DNA from: an uncultured archaeon
Lineage (GTDB): Archaea; EX4484-52; JAADEF01
Assembly: GCA_964407715.1 (NCBI GenBank)
Contig: CAYOWP010000004.1
Location: 9,668 to 73,667, forward strand
DNA length: 64,000 nt
Reading direction: 5' to 3'
Made by a program: the position numbers and the translations under genes. Positions 7,177 through 62,162 of the stretch are shown one piece after another (position 1 is the stretch's first letter; each line of letters starts with the position of its first letter). A model generated the notes under the pieces. The model was not told the DNA's origin. It made no database searches and was given only the letters and a program-made list of their open reading frames with translations.

Positions 7177-7205
7177 AAATTTTTATATGTTAACCTAATT
7201 TCAAA

Positions 7206-7500
7206 ACTTGGTTAAGAGGAAAGATAAGCTCGTAGGAGGTCATCCAACAGCAGCTAACCTTTTTGATTGGTTAGCTGCTCCTAAAGCCCTTGTGTTAGCG
7301 ATCTCCTCGCGTTAACCAGTTATTTTTAAAAAATGGTTAAGGGGAAAATGTCCTCTTAATGAAGCACATTGCAGCAGCTAACCTCAGAAAGCGGTTAGGA
7401 AGCTGCTAACCTCTTTGAGTGGTTAGCTGCTTCAAAACCTTTGGGAAAAGTGGTATCTTCGCATTAACCAATCTCAGATCAGTTGCATTTCGGGGTGTAA
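7206..7500. repeat. Repeat locus R1: GTTAACC hairpin plus AGCAGCTAACC/GGTTAGCTGCT hairpin family
   Basis: Perfect hairpin CAGCAGCTAACC-N9-GGTTAGCTGCTC at 7248-7280; CGCGTTAACCA...TGGTTAAGGGG hairpin at 7308-7344; further GGTTAGGAAGCTGCTAACC copies. Confidence 0.8.
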
Positions 7501-14345: not shown

Positions 14346-14395
14346 TTTAAAAATTTTTAGATTTTATCACCCAACAAGAGACTTCCTCATCAAAA

Positions 14396-14945: not shown

Positions 14946-15001
14946 ATGGGTTAAGAAGCGAAAAGTTTCTGAAAAGGATAGTATGGAGCAACATGGATAG
15001 T

Positions 15002-15156
15002 GGCATTATCCAATCATTCTCCATTTGTTAAGCGGAAGAGTAACCTCTTAAAGAACCGCATTAAAGTAGCGAACCTTATAGAGCTGATGCGATTACCGCT
15101 ATAAGTGCTATTTGCGCGTTAAATTTCCGCTTAACAATAAAAAATTTTGGACAAAG
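15002..15156. mobile_element. MITE-like element (short copy) with terminal inverted repeats
   Basis: 5' GGCATTATCCAATCATTC...TTGTTAAGCGGAAGA and 3' TTTCCGCTTAACAATAAAAAATTTTGGACAAAG are inverted complements; shares the AAGAACCGCATTAAAGTAGCGAACC core with copies at 38.1, 44.1 and 45.7 kb. Confidence 0.65.
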
Positions 15157-15243
15157 CCCTCAATGCCTAATGAAGAGTTAATATTTTAAATTTTTTGGTT
15201 TATATCTCTTATTTTTATTTTTATTTTAAGTTTATGGAGGGAG

Positions 15244-15486
15244 ATGATGAGGTTTGAGAAAATATCTCGATTAACAGAGATTTGTATTAAAGAGGGAGGT
15301 AACTTTTATGTTATCTTGAATGGCAATGTTTATTGTGGGATAGCTCGTACTCGCGGTCCTGTAGAATGTCCATATTGCTGTAAAGAAAAAGACATAAATG
15401 GGTTATATAAGTGTACATATGAAGGATATACAAAAATTAGGGATATGATTCTCTACAAAAAACCGCTTAATGATAAGAAATTATAA
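15244..15486 (+). CDS. small cysteine-containing hypothetical protein
   Basis: 80 aa; CGIARTRGPVECPYCC...C pattern suggests a metal-binding knuckle. Confidence 0.25.
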   Translation: MMRFEKISRLTEICIKEGGNFYVILNGNVYCGIARTRGPVECPYCCKEKDINGLYKCTYEGYTKIRDMILYKKPLNDKKL

Positions 15487-17062
15487 AATTTTTTATAATT
15501 ATATTAACAATATGAAGATTGAACATTCAGGAACTTTTCCTTATTCAAAGATCCTTTTGTATGGAATGATAATTGAAATTGGATTGTTTTCATTTATAAC
15601 ATCTTGGTATTTTTATCCATGGGATTTTTTGTCATATTTGCTAAATGGGGATTACTTATTTGGGAATGGAGAATATTATGAAATATACAGACCTCCTTGC
15701 CTCTCTTTTTTCCTCTTTCTATTGAAATTATTTTTTCAAAATAAATATCTTATATTATTTTCCTTTATTTTTATGTCATCAATATTTTTTATTTACTCTA
15801 TAGAACATATCTTAAACTCATTACCCATCAAAAATAGAGATCATGCAAGGTTGCTGATATTTTTTGTACTTGGTATGAATCCTGTCTTTATTGCTTTCTC
15901 TTTTATCCCATCGGGTACTGAAATCATTTCTATAAGTTTCGCTATGTTAGGAATCTCATACCTTCTTTCTTCCAATGGCATAAAAGATGCAACATTAAGT
16001 GGAATCTTGCTCTCACTCTCTTCCCTAACAAGATATAATTTTCTAATTTTGTTTCCTATCTTGTTTTTTCACAGAAAACTTAAGAAAATATTTTTTGCAA
16101 TTGTTTCATTTTCTATGCCTTGGCTCTTCTGGCTAATATATAACAAAGTAATGTATGGTAAATTCCTTTATAGTTTTATAGACTCATATTTCCTTAATGT
16201 ATACTATCGAGAAACAATATCACAATCACCTTCTTTCAATGAACTTCTTTTCTTATTCGTGATTATCATTACAACATCTCTTTTTTTAATATACGTGCTT
16301 AAAAAATTACTTTTCTATCATATAGAATACAAAAAGCAAATAATCGCTCTGCTTTTTATATCATTATATATTTTATTGACCTCCCTCTATACCTTTATTA
16401 TTATGCCTCTAAAAATAAAGAGATATATTTATCCTATAACTATCTCTTATATTCTCTTTGTTCTAATCTACCAAATGCTAATATCTAGCAAAAGAAAAGT
16501 AAAAATCAACAAAAGAACCATAAAAATTGGAGCAATATCTTTTATCATCTTGCTTGTTTCTTTTAATATTTTTTATGCGCAATATCTCTCTTTTTATGAG
16601 TTCAAAAATCACTATGCTCCAATCCAAGAAGAAATCGAAAATGTTTATGAATATATAAAAAATGCTTCCTGTATATACTCTGATTATTGGATTTATTATA
16701 ATGCTCTTAATATTAAAGCATATCCTGAAGGATTCTTATATGATCCGCTTACAAAATCTTTTGATACACGTAATCTCAATAGTAATTGTTCATACATTAT
16801 CTTGCATGAAAATAAAGTAGATATCTTTCCTTATTATAATGAAACCTTTAAAATGAAAGAGATAAATCAAACAAAGATATATTTTATATCCTCAGTACTC
16901 TTAAGGAAAGAAAGCACTCAAAATGCATACTTTAAAAGATATAAAAATAAAGTGGTCATAGATAACATATATTGGTATTCTTTGTTGTATGAAGATCCAA
17001 ATTTATTTTATAAAGTATGCTCAGATGCTTTTGGCATTTTCTCTTTTGCAATGTGCAAGTGA
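15470..17062 (+). CDS. polytopic membrane protein, GT-C-type glycosyltransferase-like
   Basis: ~13 predicted TM helices with a short soluble C-terminal region; resembles PMT_2/ArnT-like membrane glycosyltransferases by architecture only; real start probably internal (MKIEHSG). Confidence 0.35.
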   Translation: MIRNYKIFYNYINNMKIEHSGTFPYSKILLYGMIIEIGLFSFITSWYFYPWDFLSYLLNGDYLFGNGEYYEIYRPPCLSFFLFLLKLFFQNKYLILFSFIFMSSIFFIYSIEHILNSLPIKNRDHARLLIFFVLGMNPVFIAFSFIPSGTEIISISFAMLGISYLLSSNGIKDATLSGILLSLSSLTRYNFLILFPILFFHRKLKKIFFAIVSFSMPWLFWLIYNKVMYGKFLYSFIDSYFLNVYYRETISQSPSFNELLFLFVIIITTSLFLIYVLKKLLFYHIEYKKQIIALLFISLYILLTSLYTFIIMPLKIKRYIYPITISYILFVLIYQMLISSKRKVKINKRTIKIGAISFIILLVSFNIFYAQYLSFYEFKNHYAPIQEEIENVYEYIKNASCIYSDYWIYYNALNIKAYPEGFLYDPLTKSFDTRNLNSNCSYIILHENKVDIFPYYNETFKMKEINQTKIYFISSVLLRKESTQNAYFKRYKNKVVIDNIYWYSLLYEDPNLFYKVCSDAFGIFSFAMCK

Positions 17063-23715: not shown

Positions 23716-24624
23716 ATGATAGAATATATTCTTTATATTATTGGGATATTCCTATCAACACTTGCTCTATATTTCACAGGCATTTTAAATGTTGATTTTT
23801 ATGATATTTCTTCTCTTCTTTTTATTTATAAATATGTTGATTTAAAGATGGTATTGGCATTTGTCTTAATCTATGGATTATCGCTATCTTTTCTTTATTG
23901 GATAAAAATAAAAAATGAGAATCCAAAACTTATGTTCTTAGCAAGTTTTGTTTCTTCTTTTCCATTTTTGATGCTTTCTTATTTTGTTTTTGATATTGGA
24001 TGGTTTATATTGCTTATTGTGTGTACATTGGGCATATCATATATCATTAATATGAATGTATTACGTGAAGAAAAAATATATAAAGTTATACCTTATGACA
24101 AACTCTCAGTTAAATTATTTAAGAATGTTTTATCTTTATTTTTTATTATTTTTGCTTTATTCCTTGCATTTACATCATCATCAAGGGATAATTCTATATA
24201 CATAAATAATCTAACATATCACATTGGAAAGATAAATCTAACAGATATAACCAATTTAGAGAACAAAATTATATCTCTTCAAAGAAATTATGCTATAAAC
24301 ATAGCAAATGCAACCACTTTCATATTAATGAATGAAATATTTAATGATAACTCGCTCTCATATAACACCAAGGTCCAGTGTTTAAGAGCAATAGACTCAA
24401 ATCGAGAAAATGTGTTAGATAAGATTGATAGAGAAATATCAAGGAATGCTTCAAACAATATTGGGCAATTTGAAGATATCTCTGGGGTTGTTGAGATATC
24501 AATAAAAGCATATCCTATCATAATAGGACTTTATGTATATGTGTTATTGGGTTTCACTTTCTTTTTTATATCTTTTGCCTCTCAGGTATTAGTTAAAATA
24601 TATAAGTTAGTATATCATAAATAA
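23716..24624 (+). CDS. polytopic membrane protein of unknown function
   Basis: 302 aa; ~6 TM helices and a central Asn-rich soluble loop. Confidence 0.35.
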   Translation: MIEYILYIIGIFLSTLALYFTGILNVDFYDISSLLFIYKYVDLKMVLAFVLIYGLSLSFLYWIKIKNENPKLMFLASFVSSFPFLMLSYFVFDIGWFILLIVCTLGISYIINMNVLREEKIYKVIPYDKLSVKLFKNVLSLFFIIFALFLAFTSSSRDNSIYINNLTYHIGKINLTDITNLENKIISLQRNYAINIANATTFILMNEIFNDNSLSYNTKVQCLRAIDSNRENVLDKIDREISRNASNNIGQFEDISGVVEISIKAYPIIIGLYVYVLLGFTFFFISFASQVLVKIYKLVYHK

Positions 24625-24630
24625 AAGTAT

Positions 24631-25122
24631 ATGATGCCCTCAACAGAATGTTTAAGTGATGAAGAAAAGATATCCTATTATCTAAGCCACGTAAAAAAAC
24701 CTGTGTTATTATTTATTGGATTTCCTTTTTCAGAGATAAAAAAATTTGAATCTCATGCAAAGGTAATATATCTCATTGGAGATTTAAAAGAGAAAAAATC
24801 TTGCAAAAAAATAAGTGCATTTTCCTCTATGGATGATTTTATCAATAATTTTACATCTCTTGATGCAAAGATAACACATATATTTGCTTATTATATTGGA
24901 TGGGATCAAATAAAAAACCAACTTCCTCCAAAATTTACTCTTAATAACTCAAAACTCTATCTCTTTATAAAAGTGCCATTTGAGAAATGGAAATCTTTTA
25001 TTGATAAGGATAGATATTTGATTGAGAATACCTTAAGTGATTATAACCTCAAATTTGATGATATTATCTCATCAAATAAAGAAAATTATTTTTATGGTGT
25101 TTTTGCAAAGGTGAAAGGATGA
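24631..25122 (+). CDS. hypothetical cytoplasmic protein
   Basis: 163-aa ORF; 4-nt overlap with the next gene. Confidence 0.3.
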   Translation: MMPSTECLSDEEKISYYLSHVKKPVLLFIGFPFSEIKKFESHAKVIYLIGDLKEKKSCKKISAFSSMDDFINNFTSLDAKITHIFAYYIGWDQIKNQLPPKFTLNNSKLYLFIKVPFEKWKSFIDKDRYLIENTLSDYNLKFDDIISSNKENYFYGVFAKVKG

Positions 25123-25799
25123 ACTTTAAAGGAATGTCTCCTTTATTATCTGGAGTGCTTTACATGACAATCATAGTTACAGGTATTTTGATAGTGATGG
25201 CATCCATTTATCCAAAAATAATGGATTTAAAGGAATACTCAAAAATAACAAATACAATAAAATGTGCTAGGAACATGGATTATGCTTTGTCTCTTTTAGA
25301 AAAATCATCTCTTAGAGGAGAACAGGAAATAGAATGTAAAATAAAAAATGCAAAGTTGTCAATTAAAAATGACACTATGCTTTTTATATTTCCACATATT
25401 GATTATTTATCTCTTGACATATTCAAAAATGAAGAATATACGTTAAATGAAGGTGTTTATGTCTATGATAATGGAAGTTATTTTCTTATGGGAAACAAAT
25501 ACTTAGAAGTTAATTTTTCAAAGATATATGCCAATAACATGATAAATATCTCGCAAATTATAAATAACATATATTATAAAAAGACTTCTAAAAATATTGA
25601 TGGCTCCTCTTTATATTTCATATTAAATGATGATCCCTCTATAAGCATAGGTAGAGGATATACGATAGCTGAGCGCTCTGGAGCATATCTAAAATATGGA
25701 AAAATAATTGCTCATGTGGAAAATGATAACGCTAAATATAATTTAACCTTTATTCTATATCCCTCGGCAGATTATATTATTATCTCTGTGGAGAGTTAA
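25119..25799 (+). CDS. candidate archaeal type IV pilin-like protein (class III signal peptide)
   Basis: MNFKG|MSPLLSGVLYMTIIVTGILIVMAS: short basic N-terminus ending KG, followed by a hydrophobic helix, the layout of prepilin peptidase (FlaK/PibD/EppA) substrates. Confidence 0.4.
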   Translation: MNFKGMSPLLSGVLYMTIIVTGILIVMASIYPKIMDLKEYSKITNTIKCARNMDYALSLLEKSSLRGEQEIECKIKNAKLSIKNDTMLFIFPHIDYLSLDIFKNEEYTLNEGVYVYDNGSYFLMGNKYLEVNFSKIYANNMINISQIINNIYYKKTSKNIDGSSLYFILNDDPSISIGRGYTIAERSGAYLKYGKIIAHVENDNAKYNLTFILYPSADYIIISVES

Positions 25800-25834: not shown

Positions 25835-27055
25835 ATGATGTTAAAAAGAAAAGGAACAGAATCTTTTTTTTATGTGTTGTTAGCAGGTTTGGGAATTTTT
25901 ATACTGATAGCTATAATCTCATTAAGTATTGATTATGTGGAAGTAGAGCATCCAGAGGAAGAGATTCCATATCTCCTTAATAAAAAAGGCATAGCCGATA
26001 CAATCAAAGAGAACAAGATATATTATTTTGATAAGTTTCTATTTAAATCCTTAGGTAATGTAGAGGAGAATAAAAGGACAATTTATATTGGAGATAAAAA
26101 CATAGGAAATGTCCTGGCATATGGTGTAGTTAGAGAGAAACCCAAAATAGAGATATATAATGGATTGTTTGGTAAGAAAAATGAAATAATTTATTTTAGC
26201 ACATATAATGCAAAAAAGGTTAGAATCTCTTTTGTTGTTAACAGAACAAACAGATATGGAAGATTGATCCTAAAATTTAATGGAAAAGAAATATTCAGGA
26301 ACCTAACATATGAAGGAGAGAGAATATTGGTTGAGATTGAAAAAGGAATAAAAAATAAAAATGTTTTGGAAATTATGTGTGAATCATCTCTACCAAAAAT
26401 ATGGGCTCCAACAAAGTATGAGATAACAAACTTAAGAATTGAAGCATTGGATTATATATCAAAGGATGCTTACATAGAATTTGAGATTCTTCCAGAAGAA
26501 TATCAAGGATTACGCTATGTTGAAATCAAATTTAATGTATTGGATACAAATGAATATGCTCCTCTCTCTTTTATAGTAAATGGAAAAAAGGTATTTGAGG
26601 ATGTATTTGATGCTGGTGCAGAGCCATATAGAGTATGGTTATATAGAAAGGACAATCTTAAACCAGGAATAAATGTTCTAAGAATGGAAACATATAACTC
26701 ATCATATTATGACCTCCTAAATGTAGAGATTAACATATATTATATAGGAAATGCACATGTATATGTGGATGAGAGTAATTTCAATATAAATCCTGATGAT
26801 TATGAGTTTATAGAAAAGAATAAGGATATTTTAGAGGGAGTTATCGAAATCAACACAAGAAGCATAAATCTTGATAAGGGCATAGTTTTCTATATTAATG
26901 GTGCTCGATACACTATCAGCAACTTAAGGAGTTATGCATCAAATTATCTCACATTTGATGTTGATCTCCTTAGAAAAGGTGTAAATTATCTGAGATGGGA
27001 AACACAAGGAAATTATGAGATAAAAGATATCAAGATAGGAGTTAGGAAAAAGTGA
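25835..27055 (+). CDS. secreted/pilin-like protein with class III-like signal
   Basis: MMLKRKG|TESFFYVLLAGLGIFILIAII N-terminus; 406 aa, remainder beta-rich. Confidence 0.35.
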   Translation: MMLKRKGTESFFYVLLAGLGIFILIAIISLSIDYVEVEHPEEEIPYLLNKKGIADTIKENKIYYFDKFLFKSLGNVEENKRTIYIGDKNIGNVLAYGVVREKPKIEIYNGLFGKKNEIIYFSTYNAKKVRISFVVNRTNRYGRLILKFNGKEIFRNLTYEGERILVEIEKGIKNKNVLEIMCESSLPKIWAPTKYEITNLRIEALDYISKDAYIEFEILPEEYQGLRYVEIKFNVLDTNEYAPLSFIVNGKKVFEDVFDAGAEPYRVWLYRKDNLKPGINVLRMETYNSSYYDLLNVEINIYYIGNAHVYVDESNFNINPDDYEFIEKNKDILEGVIEINTRSINLDKGIVFYINGARYTISNLRSYASNYLTFDVDLLRKGVNYLRWETQGNYEIKDIKIGVRKK

Positions 27056-27489: not shown

Positions 27490-29337
27490 TTGGTGAATAG
27501 CATGATTAACATACTTTTTATAACCACGCTTTTTTTGGGATGGATGCTAAAATATATTGGATATGATACTCATTATTTTGTACTTTTAATCTTGTTCATA
27601 ATTGCTTATGGTATATTCTATATAGGTATAAAAGAAAACAAACAAAAAAGATTTTTGGTTTATGTTTTGTCTTCAAGTTTTATAATTGTTGTGTTGTGGG
27701 TATTGGAGTACTTTGAAATCTTATCTCTATCTATATATGACTCGCTCTTGTTATCTTTTTCTATATATTTGGCTGGAAGTATTGTTTCAAAACAAAAAAA
27801 TGAGATAATAACAATTTTTTTAACAATCATTTTCATAGGTGCTTTTATCTTTTATGTGCCAAACATATCCTTGGCAGAGATATATGGGGGAGATTTAACA
27901 CATCTTGATAACACCTTACAGAAGCTCCCTTTTATTGAAAGGGTAAAGGAAGGTTACAACATATTGATTCAGAGCTTAAAAAATATGACATATTATGAGG
28001 ATCTTGATTATCCTTCTGGTGCATCTAAGGAAAAGGAAAAAATAAGAGAATCTGTGAAAAAAGAGATAGATGATATTGTACATCTTGATATTTCCCCTTC
28101 CTCAATATCTCAAAAAGGAGATACGAAAAGCATTGTCTCGCTCTCTGCAAATAATCTCTTAAAAGATAGATATGCGAGAAATGTATATGTTGGTATGGAT
28201 GTTGGAAGTGAGGGAAGAATGTATGGTCTTGATGTGAATAGTGAAGAAGGATTCTGCTATGAAAATAATAAGAATTGCTATAGTGCAATAGACACAATAC
28301 CTCCACAAGGATTTGCACCTGCTCTATTCGAGATCATGCTTCCCCCATGTAAGAATGATTTTAATGCAGAAATTTATACAAAATATATCACTACAGCAAT
28401 TGGTGAAAAGGTAATATTTGTAGATAAGGGAGAATATAGAGATACTATATCATCAGAAGGTCCATTAACATTGGATATTGAACTTCTTCCAAAGAGACTT
28501 ACATATCCAGGAGAGGGAGACATGAAATTCATTATCAATATCTACTCATTGCTTAATAGCAATCAGTTTGAGAATCAACATGCATATTACAAATATTTAT
28601 TTCTTTCTATTCCAAAAGAGATAAATCTTGAAAGGGATTCAACATATTGTCCTTATCAAAAATATAGAGAGGAAGGAGGAAATACAATATATCTTTTTGA
28701 AATCAGAGATGAACTTCAATGCTTTGATAAAAATACTATTGGAGTGTTAACATGTAAAGCACAAATACCTGAAGAGAGGGTTGATGAGTTTATAAAAGGA
28801 TATAAGACATTTAGAGTTTATGTACCATATATATTTTATGGATCTTTTCCTTATAAAATAGAAACAATAAGTGATAAAGAATGTGAGAATGTCTTTAAGA
28901 AAAACACATTTGGATTGAGTGATGTAGAGTTTTTAAATAAAAGAGGATATTTAATCTCCTTCAGAAAAACATATAATGAAAAGGAAACAATAAACTTAGA
29001 AGATTTAGTAAGCGAGATGATAGATTTTTGTCATAATATCTTTGAAGGATCTTTTTCTGATCATGAATGTGCTTATGTTGTATTAAAAGGATATAAAGGA
29101 AAATTAAACATAGATTCATCAAGGTTCTCAAAGAGTTCAAAAGATAAGGATAAAGTTGTGTTACAAAAAGATAGTTCCTTAGATGATATCTTATCTAACT
29201 TGGAAAAGATATATGGAAATGAAATGGAAAAAGATGTGGAAATAATAAACAATTATGATGGTGAAGGAGATCTAAGTATAGATGTAAAATATAAATTTGA
29301 TTGTAGAGGTGGTAAAATAGTGGTTATCTTTGAATGA
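27490..29337 (+). CDS. membrane protein with large extracytoplasmic domain
   Basis: 615 aa; ~6 N-terminal TM helices then a ~450-aa soluble domain rich in Cys/Tyr. Confidence 0.35.
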   Translation: MVNSMINILFITTLFLGWMLKYIGYDTHYFVLLILFIIAYGIFYIGIKENKQKRFLVYVLSSSFIIVVLWVLEYFEILSLSIYDSLLLSFSIYLAGSIVSKQKNEIITIFLTIIFIGAFIFYVPNISLAEIYGGDLTHLDNTLQKLPFIERVKEGYNILIQSLKNMTYYEDLDYPSGASKEKEKIRESVKKEIDDIVHLDISPSSISQKGDTKSIVSLSANNLLKDRYARNVYVGMDVGSEGRMYGLDVNSEEGFCYENNKNCYSAIDTIPPQGFAPALFEIMLPPCKNDFNAEIYTKYITTAIGEKVIFVDKGEYRDTISSEGPLTLDIELLPKRLTYPGEGDMKFIINIYSLLNSNQFENQHAYYKYLFLSIPKEINLERDSTYCPYQKYREEGGNTIYLFEIRDELQCFDKNTIGVLTCKAQIPEERVDEFIKGYKTFRVYVPYIFYGSFPYKIETISDKECENVFKKNTFGLSDVEFLNKRGYLISFRKTYNEKETINLEDLVSEMIDFCHNIFEGSFSDHECAYVVLKGYKGKLNIDSSRFSKSSKDKDKVVLQKDSSLDDILSNLEKIYGNEMEKDVEIINNYDGEGDLSIDVKYKFDCRGGKIVVIFE

Positions 29338-30369: not shown

Positions 30370-30415
30370 TCAATTGCAATGTGAGCTTCTCTAACACAAC
30401 TTTTTAGATGTTATC

Positions 30416-31045
30416 TCGCCTGTTAACCATAATTTGTTGAAAATGGTTAACGGGAAGAAATCGCTCTTCCAAAGCTTTGCGGCGGGATATCCTTTTTTGA
30501 AGGTTAGGTGCTTCACAACCGCTTTGAAATGTTAGCTGCTCTTATGTGTTTTCTTAGAGGGTTAGGTTTCCCGTTAACCAATTTTTTATTGAGAAGATTA
30601 TGGTTAACGGGAAGAAATCGCTATCACAAAAGTTTTTTTGAGTGCGCTATCCTCTTTTAAAAGGTTATCTGCTTCCTAACCGGTTTATTAGGTTAGCTGC
30701 TCTTATGTGCTTCATTAAGGTGACATCTTCCCGTTAACCAATTTTTTATTGAGAAGATTATGGTTAACGGGAAGAAATCGCTATCACTAAGGCTTCGCAG
30801 CATGCTAACCTTTATCAAGGGTTAGCTGCTTCCAAACCGCTTTAAAAGGTTAGCTGCTCTTATGTGTTTTCTTAGAGGGTTAGGTTTCCCGTTAACCATA
30901 TTTTTATTGAGAAGATTATGGTTAACGGGAAGAAATCGCTCTTCCAAAGCTTTGCAGCATGCTAACCTTTATCAAGGGTTATCTGCTTCCAAACCGCTCT
31001 GAAAGGTTAGCTGCTGTAATATGCTTCATTAAGATGACCTTTACC
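30416..31045. repeat. Repeat locus R3: ~4 tandem ~160-bp units
   Basis: Perfect hairpin CCCGTTAACCA-N20-TGGTTAACGGG at 30570-30611, 30730-30771 and 30888-30929 (period 158-160 bp); each followed by AGCATGCTAACC-N9-GGTTAGCTGCT and further GGTTAGCTGCTCTTATGTG half-sites. Confidence 0.85.
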
Positions 31046-31153
31046 CTTTAATCAACTTTAAAAAAGAAATGTCTTGATAACGCTAAAATTTGATAAACTT
31101 AAGATCAGCAAAATAGCATCACCTTTTTTAAATGTCAAGAGGAGAGATATTTT

Positions 31154-37889: not shown

Positions 37890-38064
37890 AAATAAAATGA
37901 AGTTTTAGTGTATGCATATCTTTTACTATCCACAATTCTATGCACAATGATGCACTGAAATGACTATCATAATGAAAAAATATAATTGTTGTTCCCTCTA
38001 AAGTCGAACATCAAAAGATAAGAGATATCGCGGAAAGAGTTGAGGAGGTGTTAAGTAAATGATA

Positions 38065-38306
38065 GCATTGTCCAATAATTCTCTATTAATAAAATTTTGT
38101 TAAGCGGAAACATAATCTATCAAAGAAGCGCATTAGAGCAGCAAACATTATAGAGCTAATGCGATTGTAAGAGCAAATTTTCTCGTTAACAAATCCTTAT
38201 TAAAAAATTATTGGACAATTTGTTAATAGGAGGCATAGCCATATTCAACGGGTTAACTGCTCTAATGCGCTTCTGCGAGAGGTTATGTTTCTGCTTTACA
38301 ATGCCG
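38065..38306. mobile_element. MITE-like element copy with an inverted partial duplicate
   Basis: 5' TIR GCATTGTCCAATAATTCTCTATTAATAAAATTTTGTTAAGCGGAAAC; 3' TTCTCGTTAACAAATCCTTATTAAAAAATTATTGGACAAT; then an inverted fragment GGTTAACTGCTCTAATGCGCTTCT, the reverse complement of the AGAAGCGCATTAGAGCAGC core. Confidence 0.7.
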
Positions 38307-38362
38307 TAAATGATGTTAATGAAGTTTAAATTTAAAAGTTTTTCTAAAAAGAATATTTCCTT

Positions 38363-44118: not shown

Positions 44119-44148
44119 AATTAGATAACTCTAAAAGAAATTTTAAAA

Positions 44149-44522
44149 GCATTGTCCAATAATTCTTTGTTGTTAAGCGGAAAAGTAACCTCTTAAAGAA
44201 GCGCATTAAAGTAGCGAACCTTGTAGAGCTAATGCGATTTAAAAGGTTAGCTGCTTTATTGCCTTTTGAGAAGGTACATCTCTAACCTCTCGTTAAAGAT
44301 TAGCTGCTCTGATGTGTGTTGTTGATGTGGTATGCTTCCTGTTAACCATGTTTTATTAAAAACATAGTTAACGAGAAAATATCTTCATTCACTCATGGAA
44401 TGCAGCATGTTAATCTTTCGTTAAATGTTAGTTGCTTCATAACCATTATAAAGAGTTAGCCGCTATAAGTGCTATTTGCGCGTTAAATTTCCGCTTAACA
44501 ATAAAGAATTATTGGACAATAC
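44149..44522. mobile_element. MITE-like composite element (374 bp) bounded by ~35-bp terminal inverted repeats and carrying hairpin-repeat cargo
   Basis: 5' GCATTGTCCAATAATTCTTTGTTGTTAAGCGGAAAAG; 3' TTTCCGCTTAACAATAAAGAATTATTGGACAATAC (reverse complement); the interior has GGTTAGCTGCT, GATTAGCTGCTC and a long GTTAACCATGTTTTATTAAAAACATAGTTAAC hairpin. Confidence 0.75.
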
Positions 44523-44608
44523 CTTTTTAAAAAGTATGGCGATAAATTTAAAAAATTTTAAAACATAATTATAATATATCCTCTGTAAAATCAGGAGGTG
44601 AATAAGAA

Positions 44609-44850: not shown

Positions 44851-45645
44851 TTATATTTTTCGTATTATATTTAGGAGTTGTTGTAATATATTAGGGAATG
44901 TCTCTCTCCGTATTTTATAATACATCTCTTTGAATTCCTCTATCAACTCTGGATTAGAGGAATCTCTATCATATAAATTCCAAACACATGGTGGTAATAC
45001 AAGATATTTATTATATAATGAGATTGAATGTGCTACCCTATCAAAATAGCTTAAATCTTCATCAATATAAGCAAAATAAATATTCATAATATGAGGTGAT
45101 TTCATCTTAAAATATTCCATAAAAATATATCCTCCTGTGATGATAAACGATTTCTTACTCTCTTCATTAAGCTCATCAAAACTTCTTACTCTTTCACCAA
45201 AGTAAATTATATTTACTTTATCGAAAGCTCTTATGAATTTCTTCTTAGGTGTTTTCTCTATATCTTTGTTTTTTAGCCATATTGCAAGATTAATATATTT
45301 TTCTTTTCCTTTTCTTTTTACTCCATCTATTTCCACACAACTGTATTTTATATCTTTCCTTTCAAGGATTTCCTTAACTCTTGGTTCTAATTCTTCCTCA
45401 TACTCTCCAAGAATGAATGCTGCAGAGCCATCTATAGATTTTTTAGCTGCATAAGAGAAAATCTCTTCATAAAGCTTATCAGAAATATCTATTTTAATAT
45501 CTGCACATACTCTTATCATAGGTTTTTCAAAATTCTTTATCTTCTTATATATCAGATCAACCATATCCCTATACTCAATTATGACTTTGACATCATCATG
45601 AGTGTTCATATGCCAATTTATTATTTTAGAAAACTTTAAAAACAT
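44851..45645 (-). CDS. hypothetical protein
   Basis: 264-aa ORF with no motif I can recognise; flanked on both sides by MITE-like copies. Confidence 0.35.
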   Translation of the reverse strand: MFLKFSKIINWHMNTHDDVKVIIEYRDMVDLIYKKIKNFEKPMIRVCADIKIDISDKLYEEIFSYAAKKSIDGSAAFILGEYEEELEPRVKEILERKDIKYSCVEIDGVKRKGKEKYINLAIWLKNKDIEKTPKKKFIRAFDKVNIIYFGERVRSFDELNEESKKSFIITGGYIFMEYFKMKSPHIMNIYFAYIDEDLSYFDRVAHSISLYNKYLVLPPCVWNLYDRDSSNPELIEEFKEMYYKIRRETFPNILQQLLNIIRKI

Positions 45646-45656
45646 TACTCATAAAT

Positions 45657-45784
45657 GGCATTGTCCAATAATTCCCTATTAACAAAATTTGTTAAGCGGA
45701 AAAATAGCCTTTTAAAGAAGCGCATCAGAGCAGCAAAGCTTATTGAGCTAAGCGATTGTAGGAGCAAATTTTCTCGTTAACAAA
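45657..45784. repeat. Truncated MITE-like copy (5' TIR plus core only)
   Basis: GGCATTGTCCAATAATTCCCTATTAACAAAATTTGTTAAGCGGAAAAA...AAGAAGCGCATCAGAGCAGCAAAG...TTCTCGTTAACAAAAC; lacks the distal TTATTGGACAAT. Confidence 0.65.
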
Positions 45785-46564: not shown

Positions 46565-46625
46565 CACCATCCTGTTGAAGGATGGTGACACGCCAGCGGA
46601 TTTATGAGGCTGGCATGTGGAGTGT
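46565..46625 (+). promoter_or_regulatory. two consecutive perfect hairpins in the uS2 leader
   Basis: CACCATCC-tgttgaa-GGATGGTG (8-bp stem), then GCCAGC-ggatttatgag-GCTGGC. Confidence 0.25.
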
Positions 46626-46725
46626 GAATCAAATGCCTAAAAGAAAAATGCAAAGAAAAAAATCAGATAAAAAATATAGCAAGAAAAGGCAAAGACTTCA
46701 AAGGTCAAGTTCTGATAAGGAAATA

Positions 46726-47391
46726 ATGGCAAATGCTAAAAAAGAGAAGAGGGAAGATATCTCTAAGGAGGCAGAAACAAAATTCTTAATACCTTTAAAT
46801 CAATATTTAGCTACAGGAATACATATAGGAATGAGAGCAAGAACAAAAGATATGGAGAAGTTTATTTATAAAATCAGACAAGATAAATTGGCTGTGTTTG
46901 ATATATCAAAAGTAGATGAACGCATAAGATTAGCAGCAAATTTGTTAAGTACATATGAACCAAATGAGATATTAGCAGTAAGTAGAAAAAGAAATGGACA
47001 CAAGCCTGTATATATGTTTGCAAAAGCAACTGGTGCTAATTGCTTTTATGGTAGATTTATGCCCGGCACACTCACAAATCCAAATTATGAAAAATATATG
47101 GAACCAAAAATCATTATTATAACTGATCCCTTTGCTGATAGCCAAGCATTTCAGGAAGCAATAAAATCAAATATCACAATCATAGCCATGTGCGATACAT
47201 TTGATCAAACAAAATATATCGATTTAGTGATTCCAATGAACAATAAAGGAAGAAAAAGTGTTGCTTTGGCGTATTATCTCCTTGCAAAAGAATACTTAAA
47301 ATTAAGAGGAGAGATAAAATCAGATGATGAGTTTCCATATAAATTAAAAGATTTTGAGATGCCAATTGCTGCTAAAAGGAATATTGTTTAA
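46726..47391 (+). CDS. rps2: ribosomal protein uS2
   Basis: From Met49 of the 269-aa ORF the sequence (FLIPLNQYLATGIHIGMRARTKDMEKFIYKIRQD...IPMNNKGRKSVALAYYLLAKEYLKLRGEI) aligns from memory along its length with archaeal uS2; the upstream in-frame 48 codons (start 46582) are Lys/Arg-rich and probably untranslated. Confidence 0.85.
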   Translation: MANAKKEKREDISKEAETKFLIPLNQYLATGIHIGMRARTKDMEKFIYKIRQDKLAVFDISKVDERIRLAANLLSTYEPNEILAVSRKRNGHKPVYMFAKATGANCFYGRFMPGTLTNPNYEKYMEPKIIIITDPFADSQAFQEAIKSNITIIAMCDTFDQTKYIDLVIPMNNKGRKSVALAYYLLAKEYLKLRGEIKSDDEFPYKLKDFEMPIAAKRNIV

Positions 47392-55628: not shown

Positions 55629-55710
55629 TATCTTTTAAAAAATTACGGTTTATCAATATCTCTATATATATGATTAGGATACATACCTTGTTCCTCCGCA
55701 CACTGCTCCA

Positions 55711-55990
55711 AATGGTTAACGGGAAGCATAACCTCTTCTCAAGGCATATCACAGCAGGTAACCTCTCCGAGCGTTTAGGAAGCAGCTACCCTGAAGAAAG
55801 GTTAGCATGCTTTTATGTGTTTGGTATTGTGATATCTGCGCGTTAACCAATTTTTATTTATTCAAAATAAATAAAAATTCGTTATCAGAAAACATACCAT
55901 CTCAAAAACCACATTGGAGCAGCTAATATTTTATTTTGGTTAGGTGCTATAAAACCTTGCAAAAGATGAGATCTTCGCGTTAACCATAAC
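55711..55990. repeat. Repeat locus R7: degenerate copies of the GTTAACC / GCTAACC hairpin family upstream of tRNA-Glu
   Basis: TGGTTAACGGGAAG, CACAGCAGGTAACC, TTTAGGAAGCAGCTACCC; CGCGTTAACCAA-TTTTTATTTATTcaaaATAAATAAAAA long palindrome; GATCTTCGCGTTAACCA. Confidence 0.7.
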
Positions 55991-56044
55991 GCCTTCACTT
56001 AATTTTTTAAAAATATCTTATCTAAATATCTTTTATTTTGTTTA

Positions 56045-56119: not shown

Positions 56120-56869
56120 ATGAGAGTAAAAGTTACTCTTCTCATGAAGGAAAACACAGGTTTTTTACCATATTCATATCAGTATTTTTTATCTTCTCTT
56201 GTATATTCTGCTCTTGAGAAGGCAAATCCTGAGTTATCTTTTTATCTTCATGACCCGTCTCCTTTTAAAGGGTTTGTCTTTTCATCTTTGTTTTTTGAAA
56301 GGTTTCATAATAAAAAGCAAGGAATTTATTTTGAAGGGAAGGTTGTTTTTTATTTTTCTTCATTTTTTAAAGAAATTACTCGTTCTTTTGTTGAAGGAAT
56401 TTTATCTCTTAAGGATATCTATTTAGGAAAAAATAAATTTGATCTTGAAAAAATAGAAGTATTAGAAGATCCTGATTTCACAACAATAAATACTTTTAAT
56501 TTGCTTTCTCCTCTAATTCTCCAAAAGCCCATCAAAATAGGAAATAAACTTAAAGGTATAGATTTATTCCCACATGACAAAGACTTTTATGATTATCTAT
56601 TAAAAAATATCAAGAAGAGATATGAAAAATTTTATGGAAAATCTTTATCTTCTAACATATTTATAGAATTTTTAAATTTTAAACCAAAGAGATATTGTAT
56701 AAAAGGAGAGTATTACCGAGGGCCGCTAGGAACATTGCGCATAATAGCACCGAAAGATGTTTTACATTTACTATATCACACAGGCATTGGTTCAAAAAAC
56801 TCGATGGGATTTGGAATGCTTGCACCTTACTATGATTCTCACGGAAAACAACATAAAAATAAGATTTAA
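56120..56869 (+). CDS. cas6: CRISPR endoribonuclease Cas6
   Basis: 249 aa; C-terminal glycine-rich loop GIGSKNSMGFGML (GhGxxxxxGhG) diagnostic of Cas6; ATG 2 nt after tRNA-Glu. Confidence 0.85.
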   Translation: MRVKVTLLMKENTGFLPYSYQYFLSSLVYSALEKANPELSFYLHDPSPFKGFVFSSLFFERFHNKKQGIYFEGKVVFYFSSFFKEITRSFVEGILSLKDIYLGKNKFDLEKIEVLEDPDFTTINTFNLLSPLILQKPIKIGNKLKGIDLFPHDKDFYDYLLKNIKKRYEKFYGKSLSSNIFIEFLNFKPKRYCIKGEYYRGPLGTLRIIAPKDVLHLLYHTGIGSKNSMGFGMLAPYYDSHGKQHKNKI

Positions 56870-56916
56870 AAAGTTTATTTAGTTATCTATAATATTTTAT
56901 AAAAGAGGTTGAAATT

Positions 56917-58566
56917 ATGAACTCCTTGTTGCAATATGCGAAAGAGGAAGAAAAAAATAAAACCCATGCTCCTTCAGAACTACACTTTACAAGTAATTCT
57001 ATAAATTCCATAAAATTTGAAATACCTATTCATATAGATGCATGGATGTTAAATGGAATAGAAACACTTTATACTCTACTTAATGATCTGAAAGACTGCA
57101 AAGTAGAACTTGAATCTGATAGGTTAAAGGTAGAAATATTCGATCTGGAAAGTTTTCTAAAAATTTTTGCAGGAAAGATAGAAGATAAACAGAATAAAGT
57201 AATTTTTGTAAAAAAACTTGATAATAAGGGACAGGAAAAATTTATTAAAAAAGATTTCGTGCTTATTCAATACGGAAAAGCTATTAATGGAAAAAATGTG
57301 CTTAAAGAGAAAATTTATTTGGAAACAGAAAAACGTCTTAAAGATATTTTTTTAGCCATCAAAAAAGGGAACAAAACATGTATCCTCTGCGAGCGAAAGT
57401 TCAAAAAATCCGTTGATAAGTTAAAACAAGCTGTACATCCCTTTGCGACCAAAATAAAAAGTTTGAGCGGTGTGAGAACTCTAAAGGAAAATTACGACAA
57501 TCTCTGCCCACTGTGTTATTTGATAGGAACTTTGGAGTGGTTGGATGAAGCTATTCTTTATAGATGTTCCTTAGGTAGTGGTAAGCAAACTTATTCTGTG
57601 ATCTTTCTTCCATTTGAATTGAATCTCAAGAAACTTCATGAATGTAAGGTGGAATATAGAAAAATTTTGAAGAGTAATATAAATTCTCCAGTATCAAATT
57701 TACTAAAAATTGTACCATCCTCAGATGGTAAAGAAAAAAAGATTGGTTATGAAGGTGAGTACACAACGATTCTTAAGTTCTTTGAAAGATTTGTGAAGGA
57801 AATTCTTGGGGAATATGGCAGAGATAATTTCGAAGAAATTGACGAGATTTTTGGATATGCTGAGAGAAAATTCTGCAAATCTTGGATCATGCTTAAAATC
57901 CCTTCTGGAAATGTTAAAAACATTAAATTAAGCCGCTTAGATTTAAACAATGATTTTATTAAATTATTGATAGACCTGGAAAGAAAAGATATTTTCATCT
58001 ACGACAATATCGTGGACAAAATAGGAGTGCGTGATAAGAACGGCAAATTTCTTCCTAAAGAAACGTCTGAAACGAAAGAATACACGGCAAAAACCGTTAT
58101 TTTTGATAATTTCAGAGATTTCTCAAGAATGTTTTTACCGAGAAAAAATATAGTAAAATATCATGGTAATTTAAAAGATTTGGACGAACTAATAAAATTG
58201 TGGAGGTTGATGCCCATGAAACTTGATGAAAACCTAAAAGATATAAAAGATGCTGCAAAGACACTTGCAAAACTTCTGAAAAACCACTTAAGTATTTTGT
58301 ATGAAATGAATAAAGCCAGAACAAAAGAAGAGTTCATAAGAATCTATCAGCAAGCCTGCAGGAGATTATTGGGAGTTAGAGAAGAAGAAAGAACCAACAT
58401 TTACCCACCAGCACTCGAGAAGTTTGCAGACCTGCTGATAAATTCCTCTAACAACGAGTGGAAAACTCTAAGAGATGTGTTGCTTATCTATACTTCGATT
58501 TACATATCTAGAGGAGAATATAAAAATACTTTCACCGGTGAAGAAAATGAAGGAAACAAACCTTGA
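56917..58566 (+). CDS. cas8b: type I large subunit, Cas8b-like (Cst1/Csh1 position)
   Basis: 549 aa; CxxC...CxxC zinc knuckle (TCILCERKF...LCPLCYLIG); position between cas6 and cas7/cas5/cas3; family assigned from synteny and size. Confidence 0.5.
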   Translation: MNSLLQYAKEEEKNKTHAPSELHFTSNSINSIKFEIPIHIDAWMLNGIETLYTLLNDLKDCKVELESDRLKVEIFDLESFLKIFAGKIEDKQNKVIFVKKLDNKGQEKFIKKDFVLIQYGKAINGKNVLKEKIYLETEKRLKDIFLAIKKGNKTCILCERKFKKSVDKLKQAVHPFATKIKSLSGVRTLKENYDNLCPLCYLIGTLEWLDEAILYRCSLGSGKQTYSVIFLPFELNLKKLHECKVEYRKILKSNINSPVSNLLKIVPSSDGKEKKIGYEGEYTTILKFFERFVKEILGEYGRDNFEEIDEIFGYAERKFCKSWIMLKIPSGNVKNIKLSRLDLNNDFIKLLIDLERKDIFIYDNIVDKIGVRDKNGKFLPKETSETKEYTAKTVIFDNFRDFSRMFLPRKNIVKYHGNLKDLDELIKLWRLMPMKLDENLKDIKDAAKTLAKLLKNHLSILYEMNKARTKEEFIRIYQQACRRLLGVREEERTNIYPPALEKFADLLINSSNNEWKTLRDVLLIYTSIYISRGEYKNTFTGEENEGNKP

Positions 58567-58846
58567 AACGATAAAGAGCTTGCTCGAAAAACAAAAACAT
58601 GAACTGAAAATGAAATACGGAGTTAAAAGCATAGGTATATTCGGCTCTTTCGTGCGGGGCGAAGCAAAGAGTAGTAGTGATATAGATGTGCTTGTGGAAT
58701 TTGAAAAACCAATAAGAATGTTCAAATTTCTGGAGCTGGAAGAATATTTATCAAAACTCTGCGGACGTAAGGTTGATCTAGTATCCAAAAAAGCCCTTAA
58801 GCCGAATATAGGAAAGCACATACTGAAAGAGGTTGTGGAAATATAA
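58547..58846 (+). CDS. minimal nucleotidyltransferase (MNT / Pol-beta superfamily)
   Basis: GIFGSFVRGEAKSSSDIDVLVEF (GS...DxD) motif; ~99 aa from the ATG at 58547; overlaps the cas8b 3' end by 20 nt in another frame. Confidence 0.75.
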   Translation: MKETNLETIKSLLEKQKHELKMKYGVKSIGIFGSFVRGEAKSSSDIDVLVEFEKPIRMFKFLELEEYLSKLCGRKVDLVSKKALKPNIGKHILKEVVEI

Positions 58847-58867
58847 ATTCCAAAAAAGGTGTAAAAT

Positions 58868-60472
58868 ATGGCAAAATTGGAACGCACGGATAAACCTGTA
58901 AGCGTACTTTTAGAAGAATTGAAAAGAGGCGAGTTAGGTTTACCAGAAATCCAGAGAGGATACGTATGGAATAGACCGCAAGCAAGAGATTTGGTGGATT
59001 CTCTTTATAGAGAATATCCTTCAGGATTAATCCTCTTGTGGAAACCTAAGGAATTACCACAACTTCGCTCTCCGGATGTAGAACAGCAATCCGAAACAAA
59101 AAGAAATCCAACTTACTTAATTTTAGATGGTCAACAACGTTTAACATCCCTTGCGAAAGTGTTTGATGAAGAAGACGAAGATATAAACATTTATTTTAAT
59201 GTAGAAACTGAGGAATTTCAATTGTTCAGTACAAAATTGAAAGCAGATCCTTTATGGGTATCTGTGAAAGATGTTTTGAATAAGGGAGCTGTAAAAGTCT
59301 GGAGAGAGCTTAAGAAACGTTTATTTGAGAGGGTCTTACCACAAGTGAATGAAAAAAAGCTAGATGAATATTTGGAAAGGTTATCAAGATTAGAAAAAAT
59401 AAAGGATTATACATATCCTGTAATGATAATACACACAGATGATTATGAAGAAGTAACAGAATCGTTTATTAGAGTGAATTTCAATGGAACCAGACTAAAA
59501 GAGGCTGAAATGGCAATGGCACAATTGGCTTTCAGGTGGCCAGGAGTACTTGTTAAAGAATTTGAAAAAGCATTAGAAGATTATGAACAAATTAATTTTG
59601 ATTTCGAGCCTCGTTTTCTAATGAGATGTTTTGTGGCCATAGGTACAGGTCAAAGCAGATTTAAACATTTAACAAATCTCTGGAGAAAGAACTTAAATGA
59701 ACTTCAAGAGATATGGAGAAAAACTAAAGAAGGAATAGATTATACTATAAACTTCCTTAAGAACAACGCCGGAATAGAATCTTCAGAATGGATACCATCA
59801 ATTAATGCATTAGTACCAATTGTAGTCTATTTATCAGAACGCCAATCTTTAACAGAGAAAGAAGAAAGAATCTTGTTATTTTGGTTTTTTGTTTCCACAA
59901 TATTTGGAAGATTTACAGGTAGCCCTGAAACAAAATTAGATCAGGACTTGAAAGCACTCAAGAGTGAGGAACCTCTATTATCGCTTATAACAAATCTTAG
60001 GAGAGAAATGGCGAGTTTTGAGGTAACTCCAGAAATGCTTATAGGTAAATATCAAAGAAATCCCCATCTCCCACTAATATTTGTAATTTGTAGGAATAAC
60101 AAAGCTAAAGATTGGTTCACAGGCACAGTGCTAAGTTCAACTAATGTCGGTCCATCGCATAGACTGGAACTTCATCATATATTTCCAAAATCTTTGTTAA
60201 AAAACAATAATTATAAACCGCAAGATATAGATGCCCTTGCAAACATAGCCTTTCTATCTCAACGTGCAAACAGATCTATTTTGAATTCGCCTCCAAGTGA
60301 TTATCTTAAAGACATAGATGAAGAGAAACTCCGGGCACAGTACATTCCTATCGATAAAAATCTTTGGAAACTTGATAACTTTAGTAAGTTCTTAGAGGAA
60401 AGAAGATACCTACTAGCCAATGCTATAAACGATTATCTTAAGAGTTTAGGAGGGGATATTTATGAGATTTAA
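58868..60472 (+). CDS. DUF262 (ParB-like NTPase) fused to DUF1524 (HNH-like nuclease): GmrSD-type type IV restriction-like protein
   Basis: N-terminal IQRGYVWNRPQARDLVDSLYREYPSGLILLW...YLILDGQQRLTSL (DUF262 signature); C-terminal LELHHIFPKS...NIAFLSQRANRS (DUF1524 His-Me finger); 534 aa. Confidence 0.8.
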   Translation: MAKLERTDKPVSVLLEELKRGELGLPEIQRGYVWNRPQARDLVDSLYREYPSGLILLWKPKELPQLRSPDVEQQSETKRNPTYLILDGQQRLTSLAKVFDEEDEDINIYFNVETEEFQLFSTKLKADPLWVSVKDVLNKGAVKVWRELKKRLFERVLPQVNEKKLDEYLERLSRLEKIKDYTYPVMIIHTDDYEEVTESFIRVNFNGTRLKEAEMAMAQLAFRWPGVLVKEFEKALEDYEQINFDFEPRFLMRCFVAIGTGQSRFKHLTNLWRKNLNELQEIWRKTKEGIDYTINFLKNNAGIESSEWIPSINALVPIVVYLSERQSLTEKEERILLFWFFVSTIFGRFTGSPETKLDQDLKALKSEEPLLSLITNLRREMASFEVTPEMLIGKYQRNPHLPLIFVICRNNKAKDWFTGTVLSSTNVGPSHRLELHHIFPKSLLKNNNYKPQDIDALANIAFLSQRANRSILNSPPSDYLKDIDEEKLRAQYIPIDKNLWKLDNFSKFLEERRYLLANAINDYLKSLGGDIYEI

Positions 60473-60522
60473 AAACATGGCATGGATTATAATAAAAATG
60501 TTTGTGCACGGAGGTGAGATAA

Positions 60523-61497
60523 ATGAAAGGAATAAGTATTGTTTGGTTGTCCAAAACAGATTTGACGAACCTTAATGCAGGTGAAGGAGAAACAAATTAT
60601 ATTGATATCAAGAAATTCAGAAAGGAAGGAAAAGAATATCCCTACGTCTCAGGTCAAGCTATGAGATTTTACATTAAAGAAGCAATAAGAAGAAATCTTA
60701 AAGATAGAGAGTATATGTGTGTTCCTGATGATAAGGGTGAAACATGTGGAAATATTCAAAAGTGTATTCTATGCGATCTCTTCGGATTTATGAGTACTAT
60801 TAAAAAAGGTACTCCATGGCCAGGATATGAGAATGGACATCCAGGGGGAGCTGTAACTAGAGTATCTCCTGTGAAAGTGTCTCCTGCCATAGGTATGTTA
60901 CCGTTTGACGAAAATGTTGTCATAGACTTCCTAACAAGAAGAAAATCTCAAAAAGAAACAGGAGAATTATCTGGAGATATAGTGAATGTTGAAATAGGAA
61001 CAAACATTTATAAATGTGGAATTTCAATCGATGTAGTTAGAGTAGGGGGTGATGAAGTAATAGATAATGAAAATAGAACTGTAAAAATAGAATATCTTAT
61101 GCCCTCCGAAGAGAGAAAAAATAGAATTAAAAAAGTCTTGGAAGCTCTAAGGTATTTAACGGATTATTCGAAGCAGGCGAGATTGCTGACAGATTTCACT
61201 CCTGATGTGATATGCATAACATTCCAGAGTAAATACTCTCACAGGCTGCAGAAGCTGTTTGAGTTTGTAATCGAGAACGGGAAAATCGTAAGGAAGCTTG
61301 ATGTGAAAAGAATGGAAGAAATATTGAATGACGTAAAGGATTACAGCGACAGAATAATGTTTGGAATGATATCTGGAGTAATAGAGAACGAAGAAGAAGT
61401 AAAGGAAGTTATGCAGAAGTTTGGAATTGAAGTAAAAACACCGAAAGAGGTGATTGAAGAAGCTCTGAATTACATAAACAAAGTGGCGGTAGAGTGA
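60523..61497 (+). CDS. cas7: Cas7 (Csa2/Cst2/DevR family) Cascade backbone subunit
   Basis: N-terminal [17 protein letters not shown]...[17 protein letters not shown] matches the Cas7 RRM thumb motif. Confidence 0.8.
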
Positions 61498-62162
61498 GAG
61501 TGATCGAAATGCTTGGCCTGGTTTTTTATCTGGAAGGAATTTATTTTTGTTGTTTCAGGCAGCCGACCACAACAAGCCTAATCCTATCATTCCCCGTTCC
61601 TCCTTTTACTACTATCCGTGGTTTCTTAGAAAATGCTATAGGCTATGAAAAGGATTCATTTGCTCTACAAGAAAAAGATTTGCTCATTGGAATAAGACCT
61701 TTAAGCGAAATTGAGAAAACAACTGAACTGACAAAACTACTAAAGTTAAAAGAAAACGAGCCATGCTTTAAGAGAACTTTTCCTTCTTCACCTATGTTCA
61801 AAACTTTTCTAGTTAATCCTAAATATAAGGTATATTTAGTAGGAGATAATAAACTTATAAAAGAGATTGCAGAAAAGTTGAAAGATCCTTCCCGCCCTCT
61901 ATATCTGGGACAGTCCGACGATTTTGTGGATGTTAAAAATATAGAGACTATGGAAGTGGAAAAAACTAAGAGTTTGAAAATATATAGCGTTATTGAAGGT
62001 TTTCACGAAAATTGCGAGATTGTTAAACTTCCATACAAATTTATAAATAACGGGAAAGATGTGGAAATGAAAATTATCTCGATTCCAAAAAAGTTTCCGT
62101 TGAAGTTGAAAGAAGAAGTCGAGTGCTTTAAATTTGGTGAAGAATATGTGTGGTGCGTTTAG
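61494..62162 (+). CDS. cas5: Cas5 (Cas5t-like) Cascade subunit
   Basis: [33 protein letters not shown]: glycine-rich Cas5 N-terminal motif (PPPST..G...A.G); 4-nt overlap with cas7. Confidence 0.75.

Follow-up and report, generated by a model that had tools for sequence, protein, structure and literature searches.

Archaeal MITEs are reportedly represented by the SM1–SM4 elements of Sulfolobus, ascribed to Redder et al. in 2001, and abundant palindromic repetitive elements, MJRE1–3, are said to have been described in Methanocaldococcus jannaschii by Suyama, Lathe and Bork in 2005. The REP elements of bacteria, ~35 nt in length and associated with RAYT transposases, are not known to have terminal inverted repeats or to be flanked by target duplications. 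MITEs as a kind are well known in both archaea and bacteria (e.g., PMC11602168), and one of them, MITEHarch3, whose name suggests an archaeal host, is placed in ISfinder under IS6 (PMC6807381). On the side of the potential mobilisers, both inverted repeats of IS903B are printed as GGCTTTGTTGAATAAATC..., together with a 9-bp direct repeat (PMC10569121), and the tabulated elements of the IS5/IS903 group all generate 9-bp repeats, compared to 2–6 bp in the other IS5 subgroups (PMC3281130).

The DNA analysed here, a stretch of 64,000 nucleotides referred to as the window, is gene-dense and ~32% GC. Its segment 44149–44522 is very probably a copy of a noncoding MITE family, characterized by inverted ends, 9-bp target duplications, a body built of palindromic units, an apparent expansion in a burst and, as we infer, an IS903-group mobiliser. 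All the hallmarks of a MITE that could be assessed are present, with the exception of a cognate IS, which was not found in the ~235 kb available. We regard the family, with its dozens of insertion sites in one hydrothermal archaeal genome, as a thoroughly documented case of an established type of element and not as a new type.

The letters of the segment are as an initial annotation of this DNA had described them. The element is a complete copy of the long subtype on the forward strand, 374 bp in length (375–376 bp with extra terminal bases), as delineated by its inverted arms, a second long copy and an empty site. An inverted-repeat search recovered arms of 45 nt at 44145–44189 and 44482–44526 that are 89% complementary. 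The 35-mer end occurs twice in the window, with 0 and 2 mismatches, where shuffled sequences lead one to expect none, and the terminal 17-mer, with up to three mismatches allowed, occurs six times against 0.38 expected. The terminal inverted repeats proposed initially are thus real, although their estimated length of ~35 bp was too short, as the conserved end spans ~40 nt and is partitioned into two blocks. Alignment of 46 ends defines the left repeat (44149–44189, forward strand), which consists of block 1, GCATTGTCCAATAATTC, followed by block 2, TTGTTAAGCGGAAA; the same alignment and the inverted arms define the right repeat (44482–44522, reverse strand), which carries both blocks as their reverse complement. 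One further base, usually G...C, lies outside the GCATTG...CAATGC of the element ends. That these repeats are a chance feature of AT-rich intergenic DNA is vanishingly improbable: the low GC content of 32% is the sole observation in its favour, and it is contradicted by the excess of 35-mers over expectation (2 versus 0), by dozens of copies with the same ends and by the presence of duplications.

Between its ends, the element contains ~1.4 units of hairpin-family sequence (44240–44459, forward strand), including a unit-to-unit junction with the long palindrome that had been noted inside the segment, GTTAACCATGTTTTATTAAAAACATAGTTAAC at 44341–44372. This 220-bp interior, which is similar to hairpin arrays at 30.4 kb and 7.3 kb (families D6, D11, and D14), is missing from the 155-bp subtype and makes up the whole difference between that subtype and the 374-bp copy; in the 155-bp copy at 15003–15156, ...GCGATT is joined straight to (A)CCGCTATAAGTGC. 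A second long copy, L028:11177–11564, lies between different flanks and has 94% identity to this one across the aligned columns, or 89.6% as scored by BLAST. The only ORFs overlapping the 44149 copy are short, up to 59 aa, and are taken to be spurious.

In the window and ~171 kb of related loci (~235 kb), at least 24 complete copies of 87–388 bp were found, along with several truncated ones and a remnant of 47 bp. The complete copies, each bounded by (G)GCATTGTCCAATAATTC ... GAATTATTGGACAATGC(C), fall into size classes of 87, 135–144, 154–169, 240–258 (the commonest), 300, 346, and 369–388 bp, because the number of palindromic units between the ends varies, from 0.5 to ~2.5. The earlier remark that copies differ in internal length was therefore correct, and it is the number of internal hairpin-family units that differs. 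Coding capacity is nil across the size range (47–388 bp including the remnant), as none of the copies spans an ORF. The 46 aligned ends exhibit two conserved blocks, an outer GGCATTGTCCAATAATTC and an inner TTGTTAAGCGGAAA, connected by a short linker, which in some of them is extended by 11 inserted nt; in three ends the inner block takes the form GGTTAACGGGAA, a sequence that is also the end box of hairpin-family units. Terminal repeats, which the initial annotation had recommended looking for in the other copies, are common to all.

The related copies named in that annotation are all present, at 15003–15156, 38065–38304, and 45658–45784. The first, recorded here as 15002–15157 on the forward strand, is a complete short copy of 155 bp that adjoins a hairpin array and whose target duplication is unrecognisable (4/9). 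The second had been read as a copy with an inverted partial copy appended, a description that the alignment of 12 copies overturns: it belongs, as a complete copy, to the commonest, ~247-bp subtype (38064–38305, forward strand) and is alignable end to end with ~12 loci at 82–86% identity, its right terminus having suffered an internal deletion. The third (45657–45784, forward strand) is truncated, retaining the left terminus and core and lacking the right terminus. Elsewhere, the most similar pair of type-B copies (93%), L010:2327–2573 and 3087–3333, is arranged in direct orientation 513 bp apart and brackets a small two-gene cassette, the second protein of which appears RelE-like by eye. The sequence TTTGATGT follows copy 1, precedes copy 2 and reappears, in degenerate form, behind copy 2, and the arrangement may be either a local duplication or a composite unit.

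Target-site duplications, proposed at the outset as a check, flank most copies. Among 23 complete copies, 15 have flanking 9-mers that are identical at 8/9 positions or better, seven of them perfectly, compared to 3 of 506 control pairs made by mismatching left and right flanks (permutation p<1e-4). The commonest register is 9 bp (12 copies), with one extra base, usually G and C, counted as part of the element; three copies exhibit a 10-bp and two an 8-bp register, and duplications are poor (4–5/9) in five copies. At the 44149 copy, the left duplicated target ATTTTAAAA (44140–44148, its register uncertain by 1 nt) matches the right one, TTTTTAAAA (44524–44532), at 8/9 positions. This target resembles a TATA element; the genes on its two sides are divergent, and each of them keeps one adjoining copy of it. 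A perfect 9-bp duplication, GTAAATGAT, encloses the 38064–38305 copy at 38055–38063 and 38306–38314, and another, CAAGAATTT, borders both sides of the internally deleted 47-bp remnant L026:3440–3486. In the nested insertion L018:5337–5654, one copy resides in the tip of another and TAGACAATGC is duplicated.

A further record of insertion comes from a contig of a sister lineage, L042, which retains the gene order DUF378-GTPase-DUF192-CDC48. Its CDC48 protein falls into the same 90% cluster as that of the window, the GTPases are 85% identical, and the coding DNA is 79% identical. In place of the 374-bp copy, L042 has a short spacer with a single target, ATTTAAAAA, and the window sequence aligns to it continuously after deletion of the element together with one of the two duplicates. 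The L042 spacer is the empty site of the 44149 element, of the kind that the initial annotation had suggested seeking in related strains.

In the metagenome collection, the two-block end pattern was found in 18 stretches of one metagenome, Ga0190367; six other matches, of GC 0.36–0.57, lack the rest of the element. Since the Ga0190367 loci have only the repeats in common with the window, we considered whether they represent a second organism, which would imply horizontal spread, and rejected this possibility on samples, relatives, and GC. The three samples that contain the tryptophanyl-tRNA synthetase (TrpRS) of these loci also contain the window GTPase, relatives of both proteins occur in one assembly, GCA_054032155.1, GC is equal, and no genes overlap. 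From these shared samples, GC, and relatives, the Ga0190367 loci most likely derive from elsewhere in the window's genome, and the copies would accordingly be paralogues within one genome.

The genes flanking the element are archaeal, including a CDC48-type ATPase and a uS2 protein that is nearest to ribosomal proteins of Thermococcales and Archaeoglobus. Named homologues are otherwise distant, with the GTPase at 32–38% to Woesearchaeota/Nanoarchaeota, DRG at 54% to Nanohaloarchaeota, and TrpRS at 67% to Aenigmarchaeota, and the host is probably a small-genome DPANN archaeon. The uS2 ORF (46582–47391), read from its first ATG, has ~66 extra N-terminal residues compared to solved archaeal uS2 proteins, and its true start is probably further downstream. 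Two independent assemblies of the same strain, L001 (ENA ERZ27248328) and L002 (Logan SRR7051321), stop within the 44149 copy, as a repeat would lead one to expect, and a 2.5-kb Logan contig is the sole record of the exact DRG protein; the MITE repeats fragment short-read assemblies of the host genome.

Outside this genome, little trace of the family was found. The ~72 kb available from relatives yielded one weak, degenerate relic (L055:550–627, E = 0.056), part of a degenerate right half at L055:530–632 in a sister lineage (JGI 3300023439) with 13/17 positions of block 1, TGTTAAGC, and GAGCAGCCTAACC. This relic suggests that the family, or a relative of it, already existed when the host lineage separated from the one in which the site is empty. 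The representative-genome collection contained only four scattered bacterial matches to the two-block pattern, read as chance, so the host is absent from that collection. In the viral collection, the 17-mer had 11 isolated matches without the second block and the two-block pattern none, offering no link to viruses, and BLAST against plasmid and phage collections returned nothing. The MITE family is abundant in the host lineage and almost absent from the relatives sampled.

The copies have a regular genomic placement. All 25 copies examined, in the window and L007–L030, are intergenic and interrupt no gene; the distance to a downstream start codon is 30–110 bp for nearly all of them and 48–58 bp for many, and only 2 of 22 are found between convergent genes. 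This placement could stem from an insertion preference for promoter-proximal AT-rich DNA or from survival where the core promoter was left intact; it would be explained if, in so compact a genome, only harmless insertions had survived. In terms of age, the type-B copies share 84–93% pairwise identity, with a median of 88% and star-like divergence, and the most similar pair of any subtype reaches 94%. Their sequences suggest a single burst in the past, after which the copies decayed independently, and nothing points to present activity. The copies have diverged less from one another than the window has from L042 (79% identity in coding DNA), in agreement with the empty site.

The body of the element is not exclusive to it. 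The interior had been called a hairpin-repeat cargo; hairpin-family sequence is indeed inside, but it is better regarded as the element's body, and its units also occur in arrays. The module CTTAAnGAAGCnCATnAGAGCAGC(T)AACC, which follows the inner block, is present both in the MITE arms and in 157-bp hairpin-family units, CTTAAnGAAGCnCATnAGAGCAGCTAACC is a module shared by the MITE and the 30.4-kb array, and three orphan left ends lead straight into hairpin units. The 30.4-kb array (30374–31071), recognised by TRF, the shared module, and a census of units, consists of 3.6 tandem units of 157 bp and lacks terminal block 1. A second array of 157-bp period, identified by TRF and census, lies beside the 15003 copy at 14392–14960; the tandem repeats proper span 30443–31015 in the first array and 14497–14807 in the second. 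Further hairpin-family units adjoin a tRNA-Arg (7199–7480) and precede a tRNA-Glu and cas6 (55701–56000). The 157-bp arrays as a whole are devoid of the outer block, and their unit exists in a short form of ~108 nt and a long form of ~135 nt to which a 22-nt spacer is added. An end box, GGTTAACGGGAA, is found in every unit together with the inner boxes GGTTAGCTGC / GCAGCTAACC. Together, the MITE and hairpin families account for 4.4% of the window; over the 235 kb sampled their share is 5.9%, a figure biased upward as loci were fetched around copies. As a possibility, if a doubtful one, the arrays may represent an undescribed route by which a prokaryotic MITE expands into satellite-like DNA.

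The hairpin units and tRNA-Glu stand immediately upstream of a cas cluster (56120–62162) that encodes cas6, a csa2/cas7-like DevR, and cas5, as well as a protein with a GmrSD-type nuclease domain (58868–60472). A tandem-repeat finder detected no CRISPR array in the window.

A further question is whether the repeats serve the host, as palindromic elements of REP/BIME-like character or as a protein-binding array, with the terminal repeats being secondary. The unit boxes are conserved at 0.88, compared to 0.58 between boxes, the arrays keep a regular 157-bp period, the families take up 4–6% of a compact genome, and the copies recur 30–110 bp upstream of start codons, all of which would be consistent with a cellular function. 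This explanation nevertheless leaves the 9-bp duplications, the empty site, and the nested and internally deleted copies unaccounted for. The copies bounded by terminal repeats, moreover, are evenly conserved and diverge in a star-like manner, as under neutral decay; type-B copies in particular range between 0.85 and 0.98 along their length, unlike the hairpin units. A family almost lacking in relatives is also not a conserved cellular feature. On balance, a host function at the root of the repeats is quite unlikely, and a REP/BIME or IS200/IS605-derived palindrome (Y1 HUH) is excluded by the terminal repeats and 9-bp duplications, with no transposase of that type in the window.

The box-specific conservation of the hairpin units, as judged from sequence, may still leave room for a sequence-specific role of the boxes within the MITE family. 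Because the boxes GGTTAACGGGAA and GGTTAGCTGC stay constant as the intervening sequence drifts and RNA covariation is lacking, an array of sites for a DNA-binding protein is suggested. It is conceivable, though doubtful, that the hairpin unit is a protein-binding module and that a MITE with IS903-like ends carried such modules to sites immediately upstream of promoters throughout a reduced archaeal genome, rewiring regulation.

The same palindromes could alternatively be the helices of a structured noncoding RNA gene. The whole 376-nt strand folds as one long rod, far better than shuffled sequences (z = −11.3), yet good single-strand folding is expected of any inverted-repeat element. Rfam contained no family matching at threshold, a permissive Rfam search was likewise empty, and RNAalifold found no consensus structure in 23 aligned short hairpin units. 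The GCATTA/TAATGC hairpin that had been described in the shared core does exist, but the differences among 16 copies break its pairs or convert them to wobbles, and none is compensated. In the two obvious stems of the unit, 83.5% of positions are paired compared to 83.9% with shuffled partners, and double changes number 3 where 6.2 are expected. A set of 346 box-loop-box hairpins from a permissive search was dropped, as it was contaminated by chance 10-mers and biased through selection for pairing, and the analysis was redone on aligned whole units. The pairing, so far as the alignments indicate, reflects two conserved boxes in inverted order rather than a selected fold, and an RNA gene is very improbable.

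If the element is a MITE, as we favour, its transposase would have to be supplied in trans. No transposase domain was found by Pfam/NCBIfam in ~50 scanned ORFs of the window, which agrees with the earlier statement that it contains no transposase gene. Neither the window nor the ~171 kb of related loci contains an autonomous IS or a multi-copy ORF, and a DDE transposase (Pfam DDE_Tnp_1, ~300 aa) in an element of ~1.05 kb was encountered nowhere in the ~235 kb. The proposal of mobilisation in trans fares accordingly in two parts: the features of a MITE are in place, and the trans step is deduced, as no matching autonomous IS turned up in that ~235 kb.

Two hiding places for the transposase were considered and rejected. 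The orphan ends, as candidate ends of a full-length IS, lead into hairpin units or are deletion remnants, and their neighbours are only housekeeping genes. Seven window ORFs without Pfam hits had no transposase match in NCBIfam, one being PyrE-like. Altogether, eight ORFs of 226–611 aa in the window have no Pfam match (237–932, 23716–24624, 25119–25799, 25835–27055, 27502–29337, 44851–45645, 15470–17062, and 56917–58566), and the six of these that were also scanned against NCBIfam had none there. Several of them form a block at 23.7–29.3 kb beside large CARDB / CarboxypepD_reg-domain proteins, which are possible surface proteins.

The termini themselves offer a lead to the mobiliser. The consensus of the terminal 18 nt, GGCATTGTCCAATAATTC, is identical to the IS903B inverted repeat, GGCTTTGTTGAATAAATC, at 14/18 positions. 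Individual ends match it at 6 to 16/18, mostly 12–14, some with T at position 4, and only 5 of ~128,000 window 18-mers reach 14/18, these five being taken to be MITE ends. Because of this terminal match together with the 9-bp duplication, an IS903-group transposase is the likely agent. Given that the element is a MITE, we consider it somewhat more probable than otherwise that a DDE transposase of the IS5/IS903 kind acted in trans, a proposal derived from 18 nt and the length of the duplication. Membership in the IS903 group cannot be claimed from ends and duplication length, as the transposase gene was not found.

A mobiliser from another family with 8–10-bp duplications and GG ends (IS6, IS1, IS4, IS256, or an unclassified archaeal one) is possible, if clearly less likely. 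The absence of a partner IS from the ~235 kb is compatible with it, and the end of IS26 matches the MITE end at 9/14 positions, which is a point for IS6. The GGnnnTG start is also seen at IS6 and IS1 ends, and IS6 elements and IS6-derived MITEs are on record in archaea (PMC6807381); one IS6 element is tabulated with a 9-bp repeat (PMC3281130). Against these affinities, IS903B at 14/18 is the best match found, while a hand count on published sequences gives ~9/18 for an IS5-group end and ~6/18 for an IS1 end (PMC10569121). IS6-family ends share with the MITE no more than the generic GGnnnTG start, IS6 duplications are 8 bp where recorded, compared to the commonest register of 9 bp here, and the cointegrate movement of IS6/IS26 is, in our view, a poor fit to dispersed, short, non-autonomous copies (PMC6807381).

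Under the preferred reading, that of a MITE with an IS903-like mobiliser, an IS5-family, IS903-group DDE transposase encoded elsewhere would bind the outer blocks and cut intergenic targets situated immediately upstream of promoters, with a stagger of 9 bp; the element would be inserted, and repair would create the 9-bp duplication. The family would then have arisen in one past burst from a master copy and would now probably be inactive. These observations document an abundant MITE family in a compact archaeal genome, probably DPANN, a lineage with few described mobile elements, and suggest that IS903-type transposition has operated in archaea. The insertion points also mark the upstream limits of core promoters. 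Existing knowledge of how MITEs work is unchanged; the less ordinary features are the modular body held in common with tandem arrays, the box-specific conservation, and the promoter-proximal placement.

How, then, does this family relate to the systems that it most resembles? With the bacterial IS903 / IS903B group (IS5 family, ~1.05 kb), it shares the GGC start, TTGT, AATAA, and the 9-bp duplication. It differs in being without a transposase gene, in its archaeal host, in a body made of a palindromic unit unrelated to IS903 sequence, and in a conserved end of ~40 nt with an inner block, compared to 15–27 nt in the IS903-group elements listed. The archaeal MITEs SM1–SM4 and MITEHarch3 are likewise short and noncoding, with terminal repeats, duplications, and many intergenic copies, and are mobilised in trans. 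Their cognate IS are known in the same genomes, whereas none was found here in ~235 kb, their sequences are unrelated, and the host of the present family, a small-genome and probably DPANN archaeon, is unlike theirs. By description, MJRE1–3 can be set beside it as abundant, short, diverged palindromic repeats with a sizeable intergenic share in an AT-rich hydrothermal archaeon; however, they are not known to have IS-like termini or 9-bp duplications, and some are inside genes, compared to 25/25 intergenic copies here. The REP/BIME clusters of bacteria, finally, are head-to-tail arrays of intergenic palindromes, as are the hairpin units of this genome; unlike them, the hairpin unit here also resides inside elements that are bounded by terminal repeats and flanked by duplications.
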